Below the pieces are notes generated by a model, which saw only the letters and a list, made by a program, of their open reading frames with translations, was not told the origin of the DNA and made no database searches. A DNA stretch of 62,245 bases, filler included. It is 4 parts of 4 records of this genome, joined end to end, with 100 filler letters (N's around TTAATTAATTAA, not from the genome) between each part and the next. Parts side by side here need not be neighbours in the genome. Positions count along the whole stretch, not along the records: positions 52,673 to 62,245 come from SRR31156797_474; 3 more parts are not named here. One strand, given 5' to 3'. Positions 21,581 through 59,491 of the stretch are shown here, piece by piece (positions within the stretch are counted from its first letter, which is position 1; every line of letters begins with the position of its first letter). Both the position numbers and the translations under genes were made by a program.

Positions 21581-21680
21581 NNNNNNNNNNNNNNNNNNNN
21601 NNNNNNNNNNNNNNNNNNNNNNNNTTAATTAATTAANNNNNNNNNNNNNNNNNNNNNNNNNNNNNNNNNNNNNNNNNNNN
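21581..21680. other. Artificial contig spacer
   Basis: 44 N + TTAATTAATTAA (stops in all six frames) + 44 N; base composition changes abruptly across it. Confidence 0.98.
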
Positions 21681-37338: not shown

Positions 37339-37438
37339 NNNNNNNNNNNNNNNNNNNNNNNNNNNNNNNNNNNNNNNNNNNNTTAATTAATTAANNNNNN
37401 NNNNNNNNNNNNNNNNNNNNNNNNNNNNNNNNNNNNNN
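37339..37438. other. Artificial contig spacer
   Basis: 44 N + TTAATTAATTAA + 44 N. Confidence 0.98.
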
Positions 37439-50925: not shown

Positions 50926-51510
50926 ATGAAAAAACTATTTATTTTATTAACCTTTGTTACACTATCAACGGGTGTATTTGCGCAAGATCCTTTCATTGGT
51001 GAAATCAGAATGTTTGCAGGTAATTTTGCGCCTAGAGGATGGGCATTTTGCGATGGGCAATTATTATCAATTGCTCAATATTCAGCACTTTTTTCATTGT
51101 TAGGCACTACTTATGGTGGTGATGGAAGAACCACTTTTGCTTTGCCCGATTTAAGAGGAAGAGTGCCAATGCATGCGGGTAGCGGACCTGGTTTAACAAA
51201 CCGTCCACAAGGCCAATCAGGAGGTTCTGAAACCAATACCTTAACTATTAACCAAATGCCTTCGCATACGCACACAGCAACTGCTAATAATCCAGTTTAT
51301 GATGACGAAGCCAATTCTGATGATCCAACAGGTAAATATCCTGCAGTTTCCGGAGAGAATATGTATTCTGATCAGACATCTGGTGATGGTGCTATTCCTG
51401 AGGTAACAATTGAAAACAGTGGTGGGGGACAAGCTGTAAATAATATGCAGCCTTATGTTACAGTTCGTTTTATTATTGCACTGGAAGGTATTTTTCCATC
51501 ACGAAATTAA
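50926..51510 (+). CDS. Phage tail-collar domain protein (MdpB-like) with Sec signal peptide
   Basis: Signal MKKLFILLTFVTLSTGVFA|Q, then DPFIGEIRMFAGNFAPRGWAFCDGQLL, YGGDGRTTFALPDLRGR, NNMQPY, IALEGIFPSRN. Confidence 0.9.
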   Translation: MKKLFILLTFVTLSTGVFAQDPFIGEIRMFAGNFAPRGWAFCDGQLLSIAQYSALFSLLGTTYGGDGRTTFALPDLRGRVPMHAGSGPGLTNRPQGQSGGSETNTLTINQMPSHTHTATANNPVYDDEANSDDPTGKYPAVSGENMYSDQTSGDGAIPEVTIENSGGGQAVNNMQPYVTVRFIIALEGIFPSRN

Positions 51511-51517
51511 TTAGCTT

Positions 51518-52489
51518 ATGTTAAAATTTAAGATACTTATATTGGTCGTGATGCTTGTCTCGTTTGTTAGAGCGCAAACCAGTTTAGATTCAGGAGATAT
51601 TGCTTTTATTGCTATCAATAGCGATGGTAGTACGGATGACTTTTCTTTTGTATTGTTAAAAAGTATTGAAAGTGGCACGGTTATTTATTTTACAGATAAT
51701 GGTTGGACTGCCTCAGGTGAATTTAATGCCATTTATACAGAAAGTCATTTTTCCTGGACTGCTGATACTCAAATGGAACCGGGCACAATTGTACATATAG
51801 AAACCTATAATGGAACGGCTTTACCACAAGCATCTGAAGGTACCATAAGTGGTGAAGAAATGACTATATCTGTAGCAGGAGATCAGATTCTTGCTTATCA
51901 GGGAGATAAAATGAATCCTGTTTTTATTGCAGCTATTAGTTTTAATCAAAACTCAACAAATGAACCGGGAACAGCGTTTGATGAGGATTCATTTTCTAAT
52001 TCAACAACGGCTTTACCAGTGGATTTAACCATGGGTCTTAATGCTCTTCATATTTATGCTGAATCGAATTACCTGGAGCAGGATAATGCAATTTATAATT
52101 GTACAGTGACTTCAGGTACAAAGCCGGAATTGCTAGCTGCTATTAATGATAAAAGCAATTGGCTTATGGATAATGACAATCCATTTGAGCAATATCCGTT
52201 TGCATGTGATTTTCAGGTAGGAATTACAACTGAAGATATTTCGTTAGATGAAACTTCAGTGCAAGTGATACCAAACCCGTTAACAGATTATTTGCAATTA
52301 CAGATCGATGTTTCCAATTCAACAGAGGTGCATGTATTTAGCGCTACAGGAGAAATCATAGATGAGTTTATTTACGACTCTTTGGGAGGTTTTCAGCAGT
52401 ACGACATGAGTCATTTGGCAAGCGGTATTTATTATTTTAAAATAATGGATAACTCGCAAGAAAAAGCAATCAAAGTAATTAAAAAATAA
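51518..52489 (+). CDS. Secreted protein with C-terminal T9SS type A sorting domain
   Basis: Signal peptide; GDIAFIAINSD...FSFV...YFTDNGW...GDQILAYQG domain; CTD VIPNPLTDYL...LASGIYYFKI...KVIKK. Confidence 0.85.
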   Translation: MLKFKILILVVMLVSFVRAQTSLDSGDIAFIAINSDGSTDDFSFVLLKSIESGTVIYFTDNGWTASGEFNAIYTESHFSWTADTQMEPGTIVHIETYNGTALPQASEGTISGEEMTISVAGDQILAYQGDKMNPVFIAAISFNQNSTNEPGTAFDEDSFSNSTTALPVDLTMGLNALHIYAESNYLEQDNAIYNCTVTSGTKPELLAAINDKSNWLMDNDNPFEQYPFACDFQVGITTEDISLDETSVQVIPNPLTDYLQLQIDVSNSTEVHVFSATGEIIDEFIYDSLGGFQQYDMSHLASGIYYFKIMDNSQEKAIKVIKK

Positions 52490-52572: not shown

Positions 52573-52672
52573 NNNNNNNNNNNNNNNNNNNNNNNNNNNN
52601 NNNNNNNNNNNNNNNNTTAATTAATTAANNNNNNNNNNNNNNNNNNNNNNNNNNNNNNNNNNNNNNNNNNNN
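52573..52672. other. Artificial contig spacer
   Basis: 44 N + TTAATTAATTAA + 44 N. Confidence 0.98.
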
Positions 52673-53978
52673 CCACATCCCTGCCAAAGCGATATTGCGC
52701 TGCAATGTCAAAAACAACTCTTCCTTTGGCAAACCCCGTGCCCAGACTGAATCCGTAATAATCATCCGGGTTGTCATCTGCAGGAGAGGGATCATAAAAA
52801 AGCCCCAGTCTTAAGGGGATTACATAATGTTTATTTTTGTTGATCAAAAGATATTCAGCTCCCAGCCTCACCTGGCAGGTGGGATCAACATCAGATTGCT
52901 CTTCGGATTTGGCTGTCACCGCTGAAATTTTTGTGCCGTCTTCCTGTTTTAAAAGAAATTTTTCCCAGTGGGTTCTGTAAACATCTGCTGAGATTGTGAA
53001 TCTGTCGGAAAACCGATAGGCTGCGCCGATACCATAGGACATGGGCATTTCCAGTTTTTCTTCCATGACTATGTGCGTAGCCTCATGGCCTGTATCTTGA
53101 CCGTTGAATTCATGTTTCAGATCGGCAATAAACGGCGATTTATATACGGCACCAAGGGAAAATTTTCTATTCCTGCTATGCCATAACAGTCCTAAATTGT
53201 AGCTTAGTCCTTTAAAAACAAAATTATGGCGCGTCGCATAGTGAAATTCTTCTCGACCAGAATAGGGTCCCACAGAATAGGATCCAACAGATGAACCTGT
53301 ATAGGATTGTTCCCAGTTATTGTCACAGAGATCGTCATTCCAGATATTGACTGTAATGCCCATCGAAAGATGCCGTGGAATGATTTCAAATCCGTAGGCA
53401 ATGCCTACCGCTGAAAGACTGCCTGATTGATGATAAATACCTTCAATGTCATAATCCATACTACCAATGGTTGTCAAAGCTACCGAATCAATGATAGGGG
53501 ATTGAAATTGGTATCGATAACTTACCTCTCGGGTAAAATCATAAAGCCGCTGGTAATTGATTGATACGACCATGTTGCGGTCCCAGAGTGTGAAAGGATA
53601 AGTAAAACTAAGATAATTAAGGTCTGTTAAAGACTTCGACTGTGAACCATTTGCTTCAGAAAGGGTATAATTTGTGTTTTGGGAGCTATAGTTTCCCACG
53701 ATAGAGATCTCTGGTGTTTTCAGCTGGACAAGCCCCCCGGGGTTCCATGAGGCGGCCGTGGCATCATCCGCCACTGCGATAAACGCCCCAAATCCCAATG
53801 CTCTTGCTCCTGACCCCACAGGGTTGGGTGAAAATGCAAAATTGACATTGCTCCCAGACGGTATGATATTTGAGGAGTCAGCAAAAACCGGTGTAAAAAC
53901 CGTCAACCCCCAAACCAGGGAGAGCAAAAGAACAACCTGTGTTTTATAAATCATCCGGCTCCTAGGGCAAACTCTCAT
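52673..53978 (-). CDS. FadL/OmpP1/TodX-like outer-membrane beta-barrel, 3'-truncated
   Basis: Signal peptide; GSGARALGFGAFIAVADDATAASWNPGGL hatch motif; alternating beta-strands (SYGIGAAYRF, VRLGAEY, LRLGLFYDP). Confidence 0.85.
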
Positions 53979-54262
53979 CTTTTATCTGCAATTCGCCGTC
54001 AAATATGAATTTGAAAGCAAAAAAATTATAAAATCAATGGTTTACGTATGTGGTAAGCAGTGTATTATTGCAGGACTATAAAATGCCGGAAATAATATTT
54101 CAAGATATTTTTAATTGAGATCAAACATAAAGAAACTGGCGGGTAATTGGTAGGGTGAAATAATTATAAAATGGAATCCATATTTTTATATGAACGGTTC
54201 CATCCTTACAAAGATTCGGGCTATATCAGCACTCTGTTTTACCAGGCAAACAAAAGAAAGGA

Positions 54263-56200
54263 TCAGGGGTATATCCTGCGGACACGCCAGTTATCTATTA
54301 ATGCGGTTTTGTCCGCCTGTTCCTGCCGGGCAAAGCTTGTCCGGGCGTTGATATCATCGTCTGTTTCTATTGTCAGCATGCTTCCATTTTCAACCACTTC
54401 AAAGCGCTGACCCGGACGGACCCCATGATCATAGCCGATGTTCAAAACGATATCCCTGCCGTCCAATTTTACAATCCGCCCTTTCAGGGGATACTCTTTT
54501 TCAAGGGTCTTTACAACGGTTTCACAAAGGCGCTCTTTTTGTTCCGTGAAAAGGGTGTTGTAAAGGAGCGCGTTGAAATTGTGTTTGATACTGCCTGTTC
54601 GGGTCTCTGCCAGGCGCATGAGAAGTGTCGGCGGGTCTGATGCATTGTTGACATCAATGATTAGAAAAAGTGCGGCAGTTAAAAGTTCGGGTGTAATTTT
54701 ATTGCGCCGGGGAACCAGTTGTGACGACATGATCTCATATTCCTGTTTGAGCAACTGCCAGTCGGTTCGCTCCAAAAGCTGTATATGAGGGCATTTTTCA
54801 TGCAATCGGCTCTCCAGAACATGGGCTGCAAATTTAGCCGTTTCATCAGAAGGTTCCATGACGGACACGGACATCGTCACAGGCATGCTCCAATGGTCCA
54901 GGGGGGCTTTTTGAAGATAACCCCGGCCCGTTGTTACAAGTCCGGCCGTAATGATGCATACCAGTGCAATAAGCGCCATAACGCGTTTTCTGTTATTTGC
55001 TGTGGGGTTATCATCGGTTGCAGGCAAAGAAGGCGCTTCATCGTCAGACCGGTTTCTTATTTTTTCTTTTTTGCCGGGCGCAGGGCTGCTTTTTTCAATG
55101 GTTGGACGGGGTGAAAAAGCGGTTTGGGGAAAATAGGTCTCCTGGGGATCACCATAGAGCACATAGCTTGCCCAGGAAAAATCATTCTTGGTTTCAGCCG
55201 ACTTTTTCCGGGCAAGATTAACGGCTTCTCCCACGCTGTAGCCGTTGAAAAAATAGTCATAAAAAGTCGAGGCAAAATTGCTGCTGTGGATATCTGAAAT
55301 TTTCCATAACGTACCGATATAATGCTGTACCCCGGATCGAATCAACGCATCTGTCAGACCGAATGAGGCGTCCTTGTTCCGGGGGGCGGTATTCTCGTTG
55401 TACGCCGACTGGCAGGCGTTGAGGAAAACCAGGGAGGGCATGGCGGCTCCGCCCTCCAGTTTCGCAAATTCTTCAGCCTTAAAAACACTGTCTTTGAGTT
55501 TGATTGCGCTGGCGGATGGATGATCATGATCATAGTGTACATGGCCTGCAAAATGAATGATGTCGAAATCCGTCATTTTTAAAAACAGGTCGTCCCGGCT
55601 GGTTTCAGAGGATAAGGGCGCGGTTTTGACACAATTTTTCAGACAGGAACATTTTCGAAAAATCGTCAGGCCCTCTTTTCCGGCACTGGGCAGATCTCCA
55701 CCAGGATTGGCGATGATCCACAGTTTACAATTATCCGTGGGGATCTGCCTTGCAATCCTGTGCAGGTCCCACTGGGTTTTCACCCAGCGGCCCATACTGA
55801 ATTTCAGGCAGAGGAACTGGTTGTCCAGACAGATCAGTTCCCAGGGTATATGAACCAGATTTTCATCAAGGGTCAGGACCAACGTCTTTTTCTCGGTGTC
55901 CCGCAACCGTTTTTTTATGGCAGGGGGAAGCAACTCGTTGCACATTAGGACGCCCAGGTCCTTTAAAAGACCGTCTTCGGTTCCGTTGAGTTTTCCTGTG
56001 GGAAGCGTCTGATTAATGGCCCCGGACGCTTTTGCGCAAAAGCGGTCAATGCAGTCAAGGGATACGGTTGCCTCCTCGTGAATGGATTTCCAGACAGGGG
56101 GCTCCCGCAAGCTTACCTGCAGCTTTATGAGGTTGTCCTCTAATGGTTCACTGCTTTTTGTTATTTCAAGATGAATCGCCCGGCGGTTCATAAATGCCAT
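54263..56200 (-). CDS. CHAT (caspase/separase-like clan CD) protease with a single TM helix and periplasmic CsgG/FlgT-like module
   Basis: IPWEL, IIHFAGH (55541-55555), LVFLNACQS (55406-55420), YIGTLW, WASYVLYGDP; TM VMALIALVCIITAGLV; QLLERTDW...RLAETRTGSI; YPLKGRIV...LNIGYDHGVRPGQRF. Confidence 0.9.
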   Translation of the reverse strand: MAFMNRRAIHLEITKSSEPLEDNLIKLQVSLREPPVWKSIHEEATVSLDCIDRFCAKASGAINQTLPTGKLNGTEDGLLKDLGVLMCNELLPPAIKKRLRDTEKKTLVLTLDENLVHIPWELICLDNQFLCLKFSMGRWVKTQWDLHRIARQIPTDNCKLWIIANPGGDLPSAGKEGLTIFRKCSCLKNCVKTAPLSSETSRDDLFLKMTDFDIIHFAGHVHYDHDHPSASAIKLKDSVFKAEEFAKLEGGAAMPSLVFLNACQSAYNENTAPRNKDASFGLTDALIRSGVQHYIGTLWKISDIHSSNFASTFYDYFFNGYSVGEAVNLARKKSAETKNDFSWASYVLYGDPQETYFPQTAFSPRPTIEKSSPAPGKKEKIRNRSDDEAPSLPATDDNPTANNRKRVMALIALVCIITAGLVTTGRGYLQKAPLDHWSMPVTMSVSVMEPSDETAKFAAHVLESRLHEKCPHIQLLERTDWQLLKQEYEIMSSQLVPRRNKITPELLTAALFLIIDVNNASDPPTLLMRLAETRTGSIKHNFNALLYNTLFTEQKERLCETVVKTLEKEYPLKGRIVKLDGRDIVLNIGYDHGVRPGQRFEVVENGSMLTIETDDDINARTSFARQEQADKTALIDNWRVRRIYP

Positions 56201-56804
56201 CCTGGGTTATTTTAAAGAAAAATCGTCCACAGTCTATCTCATTTTGTTCCAAAACAAGATTATAGCTGTCAAAGGAAAGATTGGCGAATTCAGCCCTTGT
56301 GCCTTCCAGAATCCGTGCATCGAATTTGTCTTTCTCTCTTTCAAGGATCAGGCAGAATCGTGCATTGTCCTCAAAGGTGCCAACGAGTTTAAATTGCAGA
56401 TCAAAAGAATTTTGTTTTGTTTTTTTAAAGGTTATCTCTCCTGACAACCCGTCAAAATTTTTGACGATCTTTAAATAGTTGGATGGGGGATTTCCTTCAA
56501 ATGTGTTTTTAGCGGCGCTGTCCCTTAGGGCAAAGGCAGGCTGTGCCGACGGTTCAACCGTCCATTCCAGAAACCGTTTTGCTCCGGCAAGCAATGCGTT
56601 GATGATCGGTACGCCAGTCTCTTGAATTCGAACGCCGTTTTCCATCAGATCCCTGTCTTCCAGCAGGGCTTGGACCGTGACAAACTGCTCAAGGCACAGA
56701 TCACAGTCTGCCAGGTGTGCCTCCACACCGCAGGCTTTTTGTTTCGAAAGCCGACCGGTTATATAGTCATACAGTTTTACGGTTTCAATACATCCTGGTT
56801 TCAT
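56166..56804 (-). CDS. Zinc-finger (zf-HC2/ZAS) anti-sigma-like protein, no TM segment
   Basis: N-terminal C..LYDYITGRLS....VEAHLADCDLC (HxxxCxxC) and a beta-rich C-terminal domain; directly downstream of the sigma gene. Confidence 0.82.
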   Translation of the reverse strand: MKPGCIETVKLYDYITGRLSKQKACGVEAHLADCDLCLEQFVTVQALLEDRDLMENGVRIQETGVPIINALLAGAKRFLEWTVEPSAQPAFALRDSAAKNTFEGNPPSNYLKIVKNFDGLSGEITFKKTKQNSFDLQFKLVGTFEDNARFCLILEREKDKFDARILEGTRAEFANLSFDSYNLVLEQNEIDCGRFFFKITQDGIYEPPGDSS

Positions 56805-56890
56805 AGACTATTTCCTGATAAAAACTTTTATCGATAGTATAATATATGAAAAAATTAAGCATATCTTACACTCGATGATCGAGTTTCAGT

Positions 56891-57496
56891 TTATTTATAC
56901 GGCGCGCTCTTTTTTTTCACATTATTTTTTAACTGGTCTAAAGCCCTTGATTTTGCGGTGTAAACAGCACCTTTTTTCATCTTCAAATACCTGGCTATGG
57001 TGTCAAAAGGAAGTCCGTGGACGTAATACATCTTCAAGATGAGACGGCTTTTTGCCGGCAGTTCATCCATGGCGGAGCGCAGCAGGTGCTTTTGCTCCTC
57101 CAGGTCATAGGGGTGATTCTCCGATGATGATAGACCAAAAGCTTCATCCAGGGGGATCAGTTTAGAGCGGTTTGCCGTATTCAGAACGCCTTTGCTTCTA
57201 AATTCCGCCAGCACGGTCTGGTTGGCAATCATGATGATCCATCCGGCAAGACTGCTGCCCCGGCCGTTTTTGTATTGCCAGAGTTTTCTACAATTTTTTT
57301 CCAGCAGCTGTAAAAAGATTTCGTTGCGCATATCTTCGATACCCTCTTGGGTATAGGGGGTTCCCTTCAAACGAAACACTTTGACAACAGTGCATTCCAC
57401 AAGTCGCCAGTAATGCGTGATAAACGCTTGTCTTTGACAACAAAAAAGGCAGTCATACAACAGTATTCGCTCTTGATCCTTACTTAATCGTTTCAT
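56891..57496 (-). CDS. ECF-type sigma-70 factor
   Basis: Region 2 (IEDMRNEIFLQL...SLAGWIIMIANQ) and region 4 (AMDELPAKSRLILKMYYVHGLPFDTIARYL...VYTAKSRALDQLK). Confidence 0.9.
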   Translation of the reverse strand: MKRLSKDQERILLYDCLFCCQRQAFITHYWRLVECTVVKVFRLKGTPYTQEGIEDMRNEIFLQLLEKNCRKLWQYKNGRGSSLAGWIIMIANQTVLAEFRSKGVLNTANRSKLIPLDEAFGLSSSENHPYDLEEQKHLLRSAMDELPAKSRLILKMYYVHGLPFDTIARYLKMKKGAVYTAKSRALDQLKNNVKKKSAPYK

Positions 57497-59421
57497 TGGG
57501 CGATTACTTTATCTCCAATGCCGGGTTTCTCGCCTTTTATTAAAAGTTGGCCGCATTTTCCTTTAATACAGTTTGCGGCAATGACTTTTGTAGGACCGCC
57601 GGGCTTTCCCCGATAGACAAGAAGGGGCCAGTCCGATTTTATCCTCGTCTCCGGATTTTCTTGGGACGCGGTTTTATCCATAGAGGTCTTGAATGCGCCT
57701 GAGCCGAAAAAACCGCCTGTGGCTGTAATGGTTCCTGTTGCCAGGGGAAATTTGCGATGAAATTTTTCAGATAGCCTGTTGCCGATATAGGTCATGTCGG
57801 ATACACAACTGAAGGCATCCTGGACCGTAATGATTTTGGATGTTTTTTTATCAATAAGGCGGGTGACAACTTCAGTGCCATTGCCGGATCTATAAATGCT
57901 TCCGAATAGAGCCGAAGGGCATGATGCGCCGGATGACCCGGCCATGGCCGTGTTTAAATCTTGCGATAGTAACCGGAAACGTCTGTTGGCTGCAAAATCG
58001 TTTTCAAAACTGCGTAGAAAACTTTTCCAGTTATCGGCCTTTTCATTGTTATCAAAGGTATGTATGCCGATGCCGTAGCGGTAGGATAACTTAAGATGCT
58101 CAGGCGTTTTTCTGTTTAATATAATTGTTTTTTCAACGGTCTCACCCGTTTGGGTAACCGCTGTTATGGTGAACCGGTTTACGCCTTGTTCCAGGGGAAT
58201 AAAAGTGCTGCAGGTAATCCACACCCCCGGTTTTTTGAGCAGGGATTTGCCATTGAGGTCTAAAGCAAGAATGGTGCTTTCAGAGGCAATGGTAAATTCC
58301 AGGGGGGTGGCGTTTGTGAAAATTTCATTTGAATGGGGTTTTGACAGCCTGATTTCGGGTTGGTGGCCGTTTTTAAAAGAGAGGATGGCGCTGTTGTCGG
58401 TTATGCCCGAAAGGTTCAATGCCGCCAGCTCGATTTTTCGGCTGGGTCTGTTCATCTGTTTCTGGGTTTTGTTGCCAAGGGTGTCTTCTGCCAGAAGGGT
58501 TATGCGCTGCTCCCCGGGGGAAAGCCCTGCATGAAAACTGCCGTCATGGTTTGAAACGGCGATGTCCCTTCCGTTCAGGGTGAAACGGGCAATGCCGGAT
58601 GCGTCATGAAGATACCCAAAGATATCTTTTCCTGGCCTTATCCGGGAGATGCTTATAAAAGGCCCGGATTTGTCCATCAAAAGCTTTATTTTTTTTCGGG
58701 AGGTTCCTCCCATGAGATTGCCGGCTGCGATCTCAATGGTGTGGGCACCTTCGTCAAGGTAAAGCGCTTGCCTGAATATCATTTTTTTCCGGGAGCCTTC
58801 CATGAAGACGGTTTTATCATCAATGGTGATCCAGGAGACATACCGGCCGTCACTCACGGCTCCTGTTATCCGAAGCGGGAATGCGCAGCTTTTGTGGAAA
58901 CCGTTTTCGGCGTTAAATCCTGATGGAGATGTTATGGATATACAGGGGCTGGAAGCGGTGGCGTGTTTTTTTTCCATCAGCGCTTTTCTGACTTCGTCCA
59001 GGTAATAATAGGCTTTTGCCGATGGTTCCTGTTCCAGGGACATCAAAAGTTTTTTTTCAGCAACCTTGTAATGACCCATGAAAAAATGAATGACGCCGGT
59101 TTCCCGGTTTGGGAAATAATCATCTATGAAATGCATACCGTAGGTTCGGGCCATTCGTTGATCCGCAGGCCTTTGCTTAACGGCCTGATCGAGGCAGTCC
59201 ACGGCTTTTAAATAAAATTCGCCGTCAATATAGGAAAGGGCGCAGGTGTAATAATCATCCCAGTCACCCATAAAGTTGCCCCCCTGCCAGCCGTAGGAAC
59301 CATCTTTTTTTTTAAGGGTTGGGCAGGGGGAGGGGCCTGTGCAGCCCCACAGTAAAGACACAAGAAATGCCATGATTGTAACATTCCGGATGACAAGGAG
59401 ACCTGCTTTTTTAGTCTTCAT
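57493..59421 (-). CDS. Lipoprotein: TPR + Ig/cadherin-like repeats + C-terminal CsgG/FlgT-like region
   Basis: Lipobox LLWGC; TPR with DQRMARTYGMHFIDDYFPNRE; Ig-like repeats (LDEGAHTIEIAAGN, LSPGEQRITLLAED, LEQGVNRFTITA); TRLIDKKTSKII, KFPLATGTI. ATGA overlap with the sigma gene. Confidence 0.8.
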   Translation of the reverse strand: MKTKKAGLLVIRNVTIMAFLVSLLWGCTGPSPCPTLKKKDGSYGWQGGNFMGDWDDYYTCALSYIDGEFYLKAVDCLDQAVKQRPADQRMARTYGMHFIDDYFPNRETGVIHFFMGHYKVAEKKLLMSLEQEPSAKAYYYLDEVRKALMEKKHATASSPCISITSPSGFNAENGFHKSCAFPLRITGAVSDGRYVSWITIDDKTVFMEGSRKKMIFRQALYLDEGAHTIEIAAGNLMGGTSRKKIKLLMDKSGPFISISRIRPGKDIFGYLHDASGIARFTLNGRDIAVSNHDGSFHAGLSPGEQRITLLAEDTLGNKTQKQMNRPSRKIELAALNLSGITDNSAILSFKNGHQPEIRLSKPHSNEIFTNATPLEFTIASESTILALDLNGKSLLKKPGVWITCSTFIPLEQGVNRFTITAVTQTGETVEKTIILNRKTPEHLKLSYRYGIGIHTFDNNEKADNWKSFLRSFENDFAANRRFRLLSQDLNTAMAGSSGASCPSALFGSIYRSGNGTEVVTRLIDKKTSKIITVQDAFSCVSDMTYIGNRLSEKFHRKFPLATGTITATGGFFGSGAFKTSMDKTASQENPETRIKSDWPLLVYRGKPGGPTKVIAANCIKGKCGQLLIKGEKPGIGDKVIAQ

Positions 59422-59491
59422 TTTACATGAATAAAATAGGCATTTGTTCTTTGTCAAGTTAATCTGCAAAAATAGATAGAAATTTTCCTAA

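Follow-up and report, generated by a model that had tools for sequence, protein, structure and literature searches.

A candidate trans-envelope circuit linking a CHAT protease, a soluble anti-sigma factor and an ECF sigma factor in Desulfobacter-type bacteria

The window analyzed here, a stretch of DNA of 62,245 nucleotides (nt), carries on its last contig (52673-62245, GC 0.47) a cluster of five genes of a sulfate-reducing bacterium, encoding a lipoprotein, a sigma factor of the extracytoplasmic function (ECF) type, a soluble anti-sigma candidate, a membrane protease with a CHAT domain, and an outer-membrane barrel. To our knowledge most bacterial CHAT proteases lack a known substrate or trigger, and for this family we can predict a substrate and its scissile residue, a promoter and the partners upstream. 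We consider it probable, short of firmly so, that the protease frees the sigma factor by cutting the anti-sigma after arginine 94 (R94) under the control of the protease's outer module.

Specifically, the cluster would carry out regulated proteolysis across the envelope, with the barrel and the lipoprotein as the outer input. The lipoprotein would engage the homologous CsgG/FlgT-like periplasmic module of the single-pass receptor and probably cluster it, and clustering would activate the CHAT domain in the cytoplasm, which would act as a separase-like protease with specificity for Arg. The soluble anti-sigma, which has a zinc-binding anti-sigma (ZAS) domain, would then be cut after its linker Arg (R94), parting the sigma-binding ZAS domain from a beta-sandwich and destabilizing the inhibitor. 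The freed sigma factor would read promoters of the form TGTAAGA-N15-(CATAT/YGTCT), both before the anti-sigma/CHAT pair, giving feedback, and before exported proteins and peptidases. As to the signal, we would guess at the state of the barrel/lipoprotein complex or at its cargo; the complex neighbors large exported Ig and beta-propeller proteins. The topology, every contact, the clustering, the cleavage, the release of the sigma factor and the use of the promoters are what we infer. The first-pass annotation had described five co-oriented minus-strand genes, and open reading frames (ORFs) at the stated place bear this out:

57493..59421, minus strand: lipoprotein, 642 amino acids (aa), Cys27
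56891..57496, minus strand: ECF sigma factor, 201 aa
56843..56870, minus strand: predicted promoter of the cognate ECF sigma factor, TGTAAGA-N15-CATAT, from conservation only
56166..56804, minus strand: soluble anti-sigma candidate, 212 aa, ZAS domain and beta-sandwich
56523..56525, minus strand: R94 codon (AFAL-R-DS), inferred to encode the P1 residue
54263..56200, minus strand: membrane CHAT protease, 645 aa
55541-55543, 55412-55414 and 55292-55294, minus strand: codons for H220, C263 and D303 of the CHAT protease
54926-54982, minus strand: transmembrane (TM) helix of the CHAT protease, residues 407-425
54075..54103, minus strand: sigma70-type promoter match TTGAAA-17-TATAGT before the barrel gene, a consensus match only
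52673..53978, minus strand: outer-membrane barrel of the FadL/OmpP1 superfamily, BamG/PorV-like, probable start 53954

The substrate prediction comes from the anti-sigma family, in which mean identity is only 21-25%. The window protein comprises a ZAS domain (C5, H30, C34, C37), a low-confidence linker (76-101) and an Ig/FnIII-like beta-sandwich (~109-208), and it has no TM helix. A linker motif, [VIL]-R-[GS], occurs in 71 of 79 locus-derived anti-sigmas, against 21.8 ± 3.7 in shuffled sequences, and in 126 of 129 independent homologues, against 41 ± 4.8 (maximum 55). The pattern was fixed before the independent test, for which 149 new representatives were reduced to 146 of fitting length and then to the 129 that share less than 60% identity with every training row; clusters reaching E 1e-30 number 373. 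Among the 126 motifs P2 is V, I or L, and P1' is G or S in 120. The HxxxCxxC site without a TM helix, noted earlier for the window protein (H30/C34/C37), proves general: the site is kept in 126/129 independent homologues, and a TM helix is found in none of these and in none of another set of 81. Two alignments and four Desulfobacter-type sequences place the family Arg at R94 in the window; residue 99, a Lys put at this position by one alignment, was ruled out by the others. Because the Arg is fixed in a variable, disordered linker, encoded beside a protease with a separase-like pocket, it is best read as the predicted cleavage site of that protease.

The partners fit their assigned classes. 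The sigma factor has the sigma2 and sigma4 regions only and scores 67.8 bits with TIGR02937 (cut-off 42.9), and the best PDB matches of its family profile include AlgU-type, SigW and SigE ECF sigma factors. The anti-sigma candidate combines an N-terminal Cys...HxxxCxxC zinc site with a gene at +1 of an ECF sigma gene, as in ZAS class I, and its family profile matches RsiW, ChrR, DdvA-N and RsrA. The window protein itself scores 16.7 with the Pfam zinc-finger model, below the cut-off of 22.2, while zf-HC2 is found in 52 of 59 family members and no other Pfam family is common among them. Fold searches with the C-terminal domain return only generic Ig/FnIII sandwiches: Foldseek gives a best E of 4e-3, VIA a best Z of 9.8 (root-mean-square deviation 2.1, 89 aligned), and Atlas unnamed clusters. 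In one 411-aa protein (P0279) an anti-sigma with a VRG motif is fused to a C-terminal sigma factor, where a cut would part ZAS from sigma; this is a single case and could be an artefact. At L172:2354-9226 another pair consists of a TPR-CHAT protein and a ZAS protein whose sequence shows TVRG/TTRG motifs, a hydrophobic stretch and, by eye, a trypsin-like region.

The protease itself matches CHAT (PF12770, 88-351, 112 bits) and, weakly, FlgT_C (582-609). As previously reported, the His-Cys dyad, HFAGH (H220) and NACQS (C263), lies N-terminal of a single TM helix (407-425); both residues are invariant in the family, both motifs are kept in all 120 homologues listed of 773, and in 119 of the 120 a TM helix follows the CHAT domain. 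In the AlphaFold model (confidence score, pLDDT, 86) region 1-360 is folded, as is the outer module (~434-645), CsgG-like and FlgT_C-like; a disordered linker and the TM helix lie between the two. With this model as query, Foldseek ranks Csx29 and separase first and also matches FlgT; region 1-360 is separase/Csx29-like, and with its HxxGH/NxCxS dyad the protein has the marks of a clan CD protease. Because there is no N-terminal signal, and because basic residues precede the sole hydrophobic helix, the CHAT domain is likely cytoplasmic. D303, at Cys+40, is invariant in 75 of 75 paired CHAT sequences. In human separase D2070, at Cys+41, hydrogen-bonds the substrate P1 Arg (PMC12609080), and by spacing and a weak profile match D303 would be a similar pocket residue. 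Together with the substrate motif, D303 points to Arg specificity. A similar Arg motif is enriched in the linker between CHAT and TM helix, in 24 of 55 dereplicated proteins against 5.8 ± 2.2 expected (Lys control 5); the protease may cut itself free of the membrane, either as a step in activation or as a different function.

What ties these genes together is their linkage and co-distribution, both observed directly, like the genes, motifs and folds and the fact that both the Arg and the DNA motif are conserved. The CHAT gene was the basis on which 117 loci were chosen for annotation; besides the window they comprise 3 loci and 33 regions from genomes and the best 80 of 490 metagenome matches. 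After dropping CHAT proteins more than 90% identical, and counting only loci with enough flank, an anti-sigma gene lies within 1.5 kb of CHAT in 69/88 loci, anti-sigma and sigma genes are near it in 53/72, a barrel gene in 16/25 and a lipoprotein gene in 26/35, the last count being perhaps slightly high, as the lipoprotein cluster included a few fragments. The converse was tested in 401 Desulfobacterota genomes, with the CHAT family defined as E 1e-50 or better: the anti-sigma profile matches 16 genomes, one by its ZAS domain alone and 15 in full length. All 15 also have the CHAT family, which occurs in 23 genomes overall, and the Arg motif is retained in three cases where a sigma/anti-sigma pair or an anti-sigma gene is not linked to CHAT.

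The synteny search across Desulfobacterota proposed by the first-pass annotation finds all five genes linked repeatedly. Relatives of the contig's proteins are 70-88% identical in three Desulfobacter-type genomes, which have the five genes in identical order and orientation, and these include the cultured strain Desulfobacter curvatus DSM 3379 (locus L003). Since the gene set is also found in divergent loci, the arrangement is not a product of chance; the cluster is conserved in Desulfobacterota and metagenomes. In one lineage, loci L123 and L125-L129, the module is complete and its position after a recJ-like gene is fixed, which suggests vertical inheritance, whereas the Desulfobacter copies have variable flanks. 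L124 (G292:C45) is a decaying copy, with an anti-sigma remnant containing stops, a split lipoprotein, a split barrel and an intact cyclase-CHAT gene.

The promoter prediction started from an unbiased count of word pairs upstream of anti-sigma genes, which gave TGTAAG...GTCTA. Refined to TGTAAGA-N15-(CATAY/CATCT/YGTCT), the motif has 33 matches in the 117 loci against 0.8 in shuffles (an in-sample figure), and 32 of the 33 lie outside long ORFs, although these cover 80% of the DNA. In the window the predicted ECF promoter lies 66 nt before the anti-sigma start. The D. curvatus locus has three sites, before the anti-sigma gene, a divergent pair of subtilase and C25 peptidase genes, and a small lipoprotein gene. 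In genome G300, which lies outside the sample, there are 7 sites against 1 in the control, one before its unlinked anti-sigma gene and most of the others before proteins with signal-peptide-like starts; in genomes G174 and G365 no ECF motif was found at the locus. A very strict pattern, found in 6 of 401 genomes (2 with the system) against 24 in the reversed control, is uninformative. Searches upstream of the barrel, lipoprotein and sigma genes gave no shared ECF motif, the barrel having it in 1 of 30 cases at loose settings. Before the barrel gene a sigma70-type -35 box is identical in four Desulfobacter-type loci and the -10 box in three of the four. Because this site takes the place of the ECF motif, the barrel looks more like a constitutive component than an induced target. 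Between CHAT and barrel, at ~54188-54210 on the minus strand, lies a copy of the ECF motif, probably decayed, whose spacer is ~4 nt short; it is also present in L002.

Several points weigh against release of the sigma factor by cleavage at R94. The window has Asp at P1', not the Gly or Ser of the family, as do the other three Desulfobacter-type copies, and the conserved Arg could instead be a binding residue. The correspondence of D303 to D2070 is one of spacing and a weak profile match (E about 1), not of superposed structures, and self-cleavage in the CHAT-TM linker could be the main event. All five genes occur together in only 12 of 25 wide loci. Eight of the 23 genomes with the CHAT family have no full-length anti-sigma match, in a set of incomplete genomes, and a low-stringency search of five of the eight found ZAS-only matches or a broken remnant only; because such genomes exist, the protease may have other substrates. 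Finally, the strict promoter motif precedes only 20 of 72 anti-sigma genes and was derived from the same loci, and a looser motif has no genome-wide enrichment in three Desulfobacter-type genomes.

The outer partners are joined to the protease through its outer module. The lipoprotein has a TPR-like region, Ig-like repeats (Glucodextran_B) and a C-terminal CsgG/FlgT-like module homologous to that of the protease (HHalign 98.9%, E 2.9e-17). The association of lipoprotein and barrel with this module, proposed earlier, is borne out: a gene of the lipoprotein cluster lies near 28 of 29 CHAT genes with a CsgG/FlgT module and near 2 of 9 without (Fisher p 2e-5, ignoring kinship), and the two families occur in 21 (lipoprotein) and 22 (barrel) of 381 genomes, 21 being common to both. 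Note that both profiles were partly trained on these genomes; for barrels outside the training set, the lipoprotein is present in 8 of 9 genomes. The lipoprotein alignment also contained three unrelated AhpC-TPR-CsgG proteins, and for that reason the 14 genomes whose best E was weaker than 1e-118 were dropped from a set of 35.

The earlier reading of barrel and lipoprotein as parts of the CHAT relay needs a correction. Three lipoprotein loci without CHAT have a cyclase-TM-TPR-CsgG receptor (two loci) or a TIR-TM-CsgG receptor (one), the barrel is adjacent in two of the three, and no sigma or anti-sigma gene was found within 20 kb. The pair is not specific to the protease, then, but also accompanies receptors that share its outer module and bear a cyclase or TIR domain. 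Some CHAT receptors in turn bear an additional cyclase or TIR domain or a kinase together with a cyclase, and TPR, DUF4384 or AAA C-termini also occur. So two modules combine, barrel/lipoprotein/CsgG-type receptor outside and CHAT/anti-sigma/sigma inside, and the window has both. A wider claim, which we put forward only tentatively, is that the FadL-like barrel and CsgG/FlgT-like lipoprotein form a previously unrecognized, TonB-independent surface-signaling chassis of Gram-negatives, clustering a single-pass receptor whose cytoplasmic output can be exchanged, the candidates being a caspase-like protease, a class III cyclase, a TIR domain and a Ser/Thr kinase. With the protease as output it would be a bacterial parallel to receptor caspases activated by proximity, and a single cut after Arg would free a sigma factor.

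Some related arrangements deserve mention. Among 46 CHAT homologues with long N-termini, the first Asp of class III cyclases is present in 44 and NxxAR in 44, and a Lys-x-x-Gly-Asp pattern is matched by only 8; cyclase activity and nucleotide choice may vary among them. At L112:2238-12115 and L117 sigma and anti-sigma genes are followed by two tandem CHAT-TPR genes (~1908 and 872 aa), and at L229:2983-8140 genes for sigma, ZAS-TM and TPR-CHAT proteins adjoin the same lipoprotein and barrel family. Proteins of a small family, 158-238 aa long and with no Pfam match, are encoded directly after the barrel at L001:13608-15008 and L003:13535-14146, the L003 copy having an upstream ECF motif.

The barrel data also bear on an alternative in which the protease-sigma core is the same, while barrel and lipoprotein are a PorV/BamG-like export or surface-anchoring machine monitored by the receptor from the periplasm, and no outside ligand is relayed. 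By Pfam the barrel belongs to the FadL/OmpP1 superfamily, and the BamG model matches all 28 barrels and the PorV/PorQ model 27 of them, with scores under the cut-off among the matches listed; the window barrel falls below the NCBIfam cut-offs (BamG 67.9 against 250, PorV 46.1 against 90). Among the neighbors are many large exported proteins of the Ig, PKD, cadherin and beta-propeller kinds, and the ECF motif precedes exported proteins. The sigma70-type promoter of the barrel and the near-absence of the ECF motif before it count against this alternative, while being compatible with either role, and overall we judge it unlikely, though it deserves some weight.

A second alternative makes the anti-sigma a redox or zinc sensor of the RsrA/ChrR type, which would free the sigma factor without proteolysis, with CHAT as an induced output that cuts itself or others. 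The complete Cys/His zinc site and the profile matches to RsrA and ChrR agree with this, as do the juxtamembrane Arg motif in CHAT, the existence of CHAT genes without anti-sigma and a predicted promoter that would co-induce CHAT and anti-sigma. Left unexplained, however, are the near-invariant linker Arg, the retention of the protease in all 15 anti-sigma genomes, even where unlinked and with the motif kept, and the lack of sigma and anti-sigma genes at the three CHAT-less receptor loci, and we regard it as improbable. More doubtful still is a role in phage defense or cell death, with the receptor sensing attack on the envelope and its output (caspase-like, cyclase or TIR) arresting or killing the cell: these output types are used in defense, there are weak PADLOC matches (BovA for CHAT, PycC for the cyclase, a TIR model), and DdvA/DdvS and Craspase control defense genes (PMC11506125, PMC10028731), but PADLOC matches none of sigma, anti-sigma, lipoprotein or barrel, the 56 of 91 neighbor representatives scanned with Pfam contain no Cas family and one reverse-transcriptase fragment, and the predicted targets are mostly exported proteins and peptidases.

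Cleavage at R94 under control of the outer module remains our preferred explanation. The gene boundaries need one amendment. The ATGA overlap of lipoprotein and sigma genes is as first reported, and the 35-nt overlap of anti-sigma and CHAT holds from the first CHAT ATG but becomes 26 nt from the fourth codon, the start suggested by database homologues of 640-642 aa and by AGGA spacing. The lipoprotein ORF is readable from a TTG at 59469, and the ATG at 59421 yields a normal signal peptide and lipobox (LLWG/C). The 3' end of the barrel gene is lost at the contig end (52673). An upstream ppk1 gene was rejected as a module member, being a variable neighbor across loci, and an Rfam search of the contig gave no match. 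The window as a whole is four contigs joined by N44-TTAATTAATTAA-N44 linkers:

21581-21680, 37339-37438 and 52573-52672: artificial contig linkers

The GC of the four segments is ~0.50, 0.31, 0.35 and 0.47, and the third encodes a T9SS (type IX secretion system)-sorted protein and a tail-collar protein (50926-52489); from these differences and contents, the window mixes organisms.

In the full-text literature searched, mostly excluding subscription journals, the five-gene cluster is undescribed, and an ECF group covering these sigma factors may exist. ECF54 (PMC7826278, PMC8999054), for which regulation by proteolysis has been proposed, has an ECF sigma gene beside CHAT and subtilase genes and a carboxypeptidase-regulatory-like beta-sandwich gene at +1. 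Here that domain is matched weakly at +1 (PF13620 in 1/59, EMC7 beta-sandwich in 5/59, Atlas 0.76). ECF54 differs in being confined to Actinobacteria, with a predicted promoter GTATCAG / CTCC, no anti-sigma recognized, and no membrane receptor, lipoprotein or barrel described; our hosts are Desulfobacter-type and their motif is another. DdvA/DdvS of Myxococcus xanthus (PMC11506125) likewise unites ZAS domain, CHAT and ECF sigma in one envelope signaling unit, but in inverted form: DdvA, which needs RseP, is an anti-sigma of the TM type and has its TPR-CHAT part in the periplasm, whereas here CHAT is predicted to be cytoplasmic and the anti-sigma is separate, soluble and, as noted, consistently without a TM helix.

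The Craspase circuit of Csx29, Csx30 and CASP-sigma (PMC10028731) shares a cytoplasmic separase-like CHAT protease, which is also the top structural match, a soluble two-domain anti-sigma and an ECF sigma factor with sites in its own locus. It differs in that Csx29 is activated by Cas7-11 and target RNA, has N-terminal TPRs and cuts after Met or Leu; the window protease has no N-terminal TPR, and no Cas gene was found on the 9.6-kb contig. Csx30 is not among the matches listed for the anti-sigma profile, which does not exclude homology.

The closest precedent, missed by the first-pass annotation, is HetF of Anabaena sp. PCC 7120; the CRISPR-independent 'caspase-sigma' pathway suggested earlier for the window is thus already known in kind. 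The soluble HetF CHAT domain cuts PatU3 after R117 (R117/S118; PMC9457339), and HetZ, a sigma factor of the ECF type, transcribes PatU3 and is inhibited by it (PMC13342950). The systems share an N-terminal CHAT domain followed by one TM helix and a C-terminal domain that is periplasmic in HetF and predicted to be so here, no CRISPR link (PMC9457339, PMC8406250, PMC13342950), and a sigma inhibitor cut after Arg, as predicted here; PatU3 is also co-transcribed with HetZ. HetF differs in its periplasmic TPRs and its place in the divisome, the window protease having a CsgG/FlgT-like module and no TPR, though some of its relatives carry TPRs. HetZ has three insertions where the window sigma factor is a plain 201-aa ECF protein, and the window inhibitor, unlike PatU3, combines ZAS and beta-sandwich. 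In gene layout, too, the protease here is clustered with sigma, anti-sigma, lipoprotein and barrel. The HetF family model (NF045509) scores the window protease at 15.9 bits against a cut-off of 1200, and neither by score nor by outer domain is it a HetF-family member. The protease-sigma logic is already known from HetF, then, and the five-part form is apparently undescribed in the papers searched. The predicted substrate site, the promoter and the swappable receptor make the proposal directly testable; if true, the HetF logic extends beyond cyanobacteria, the protease-sigma arm of Craspase gains a non-CRISPR context, and signals have a new route across both membranes with interchangeable outputs.

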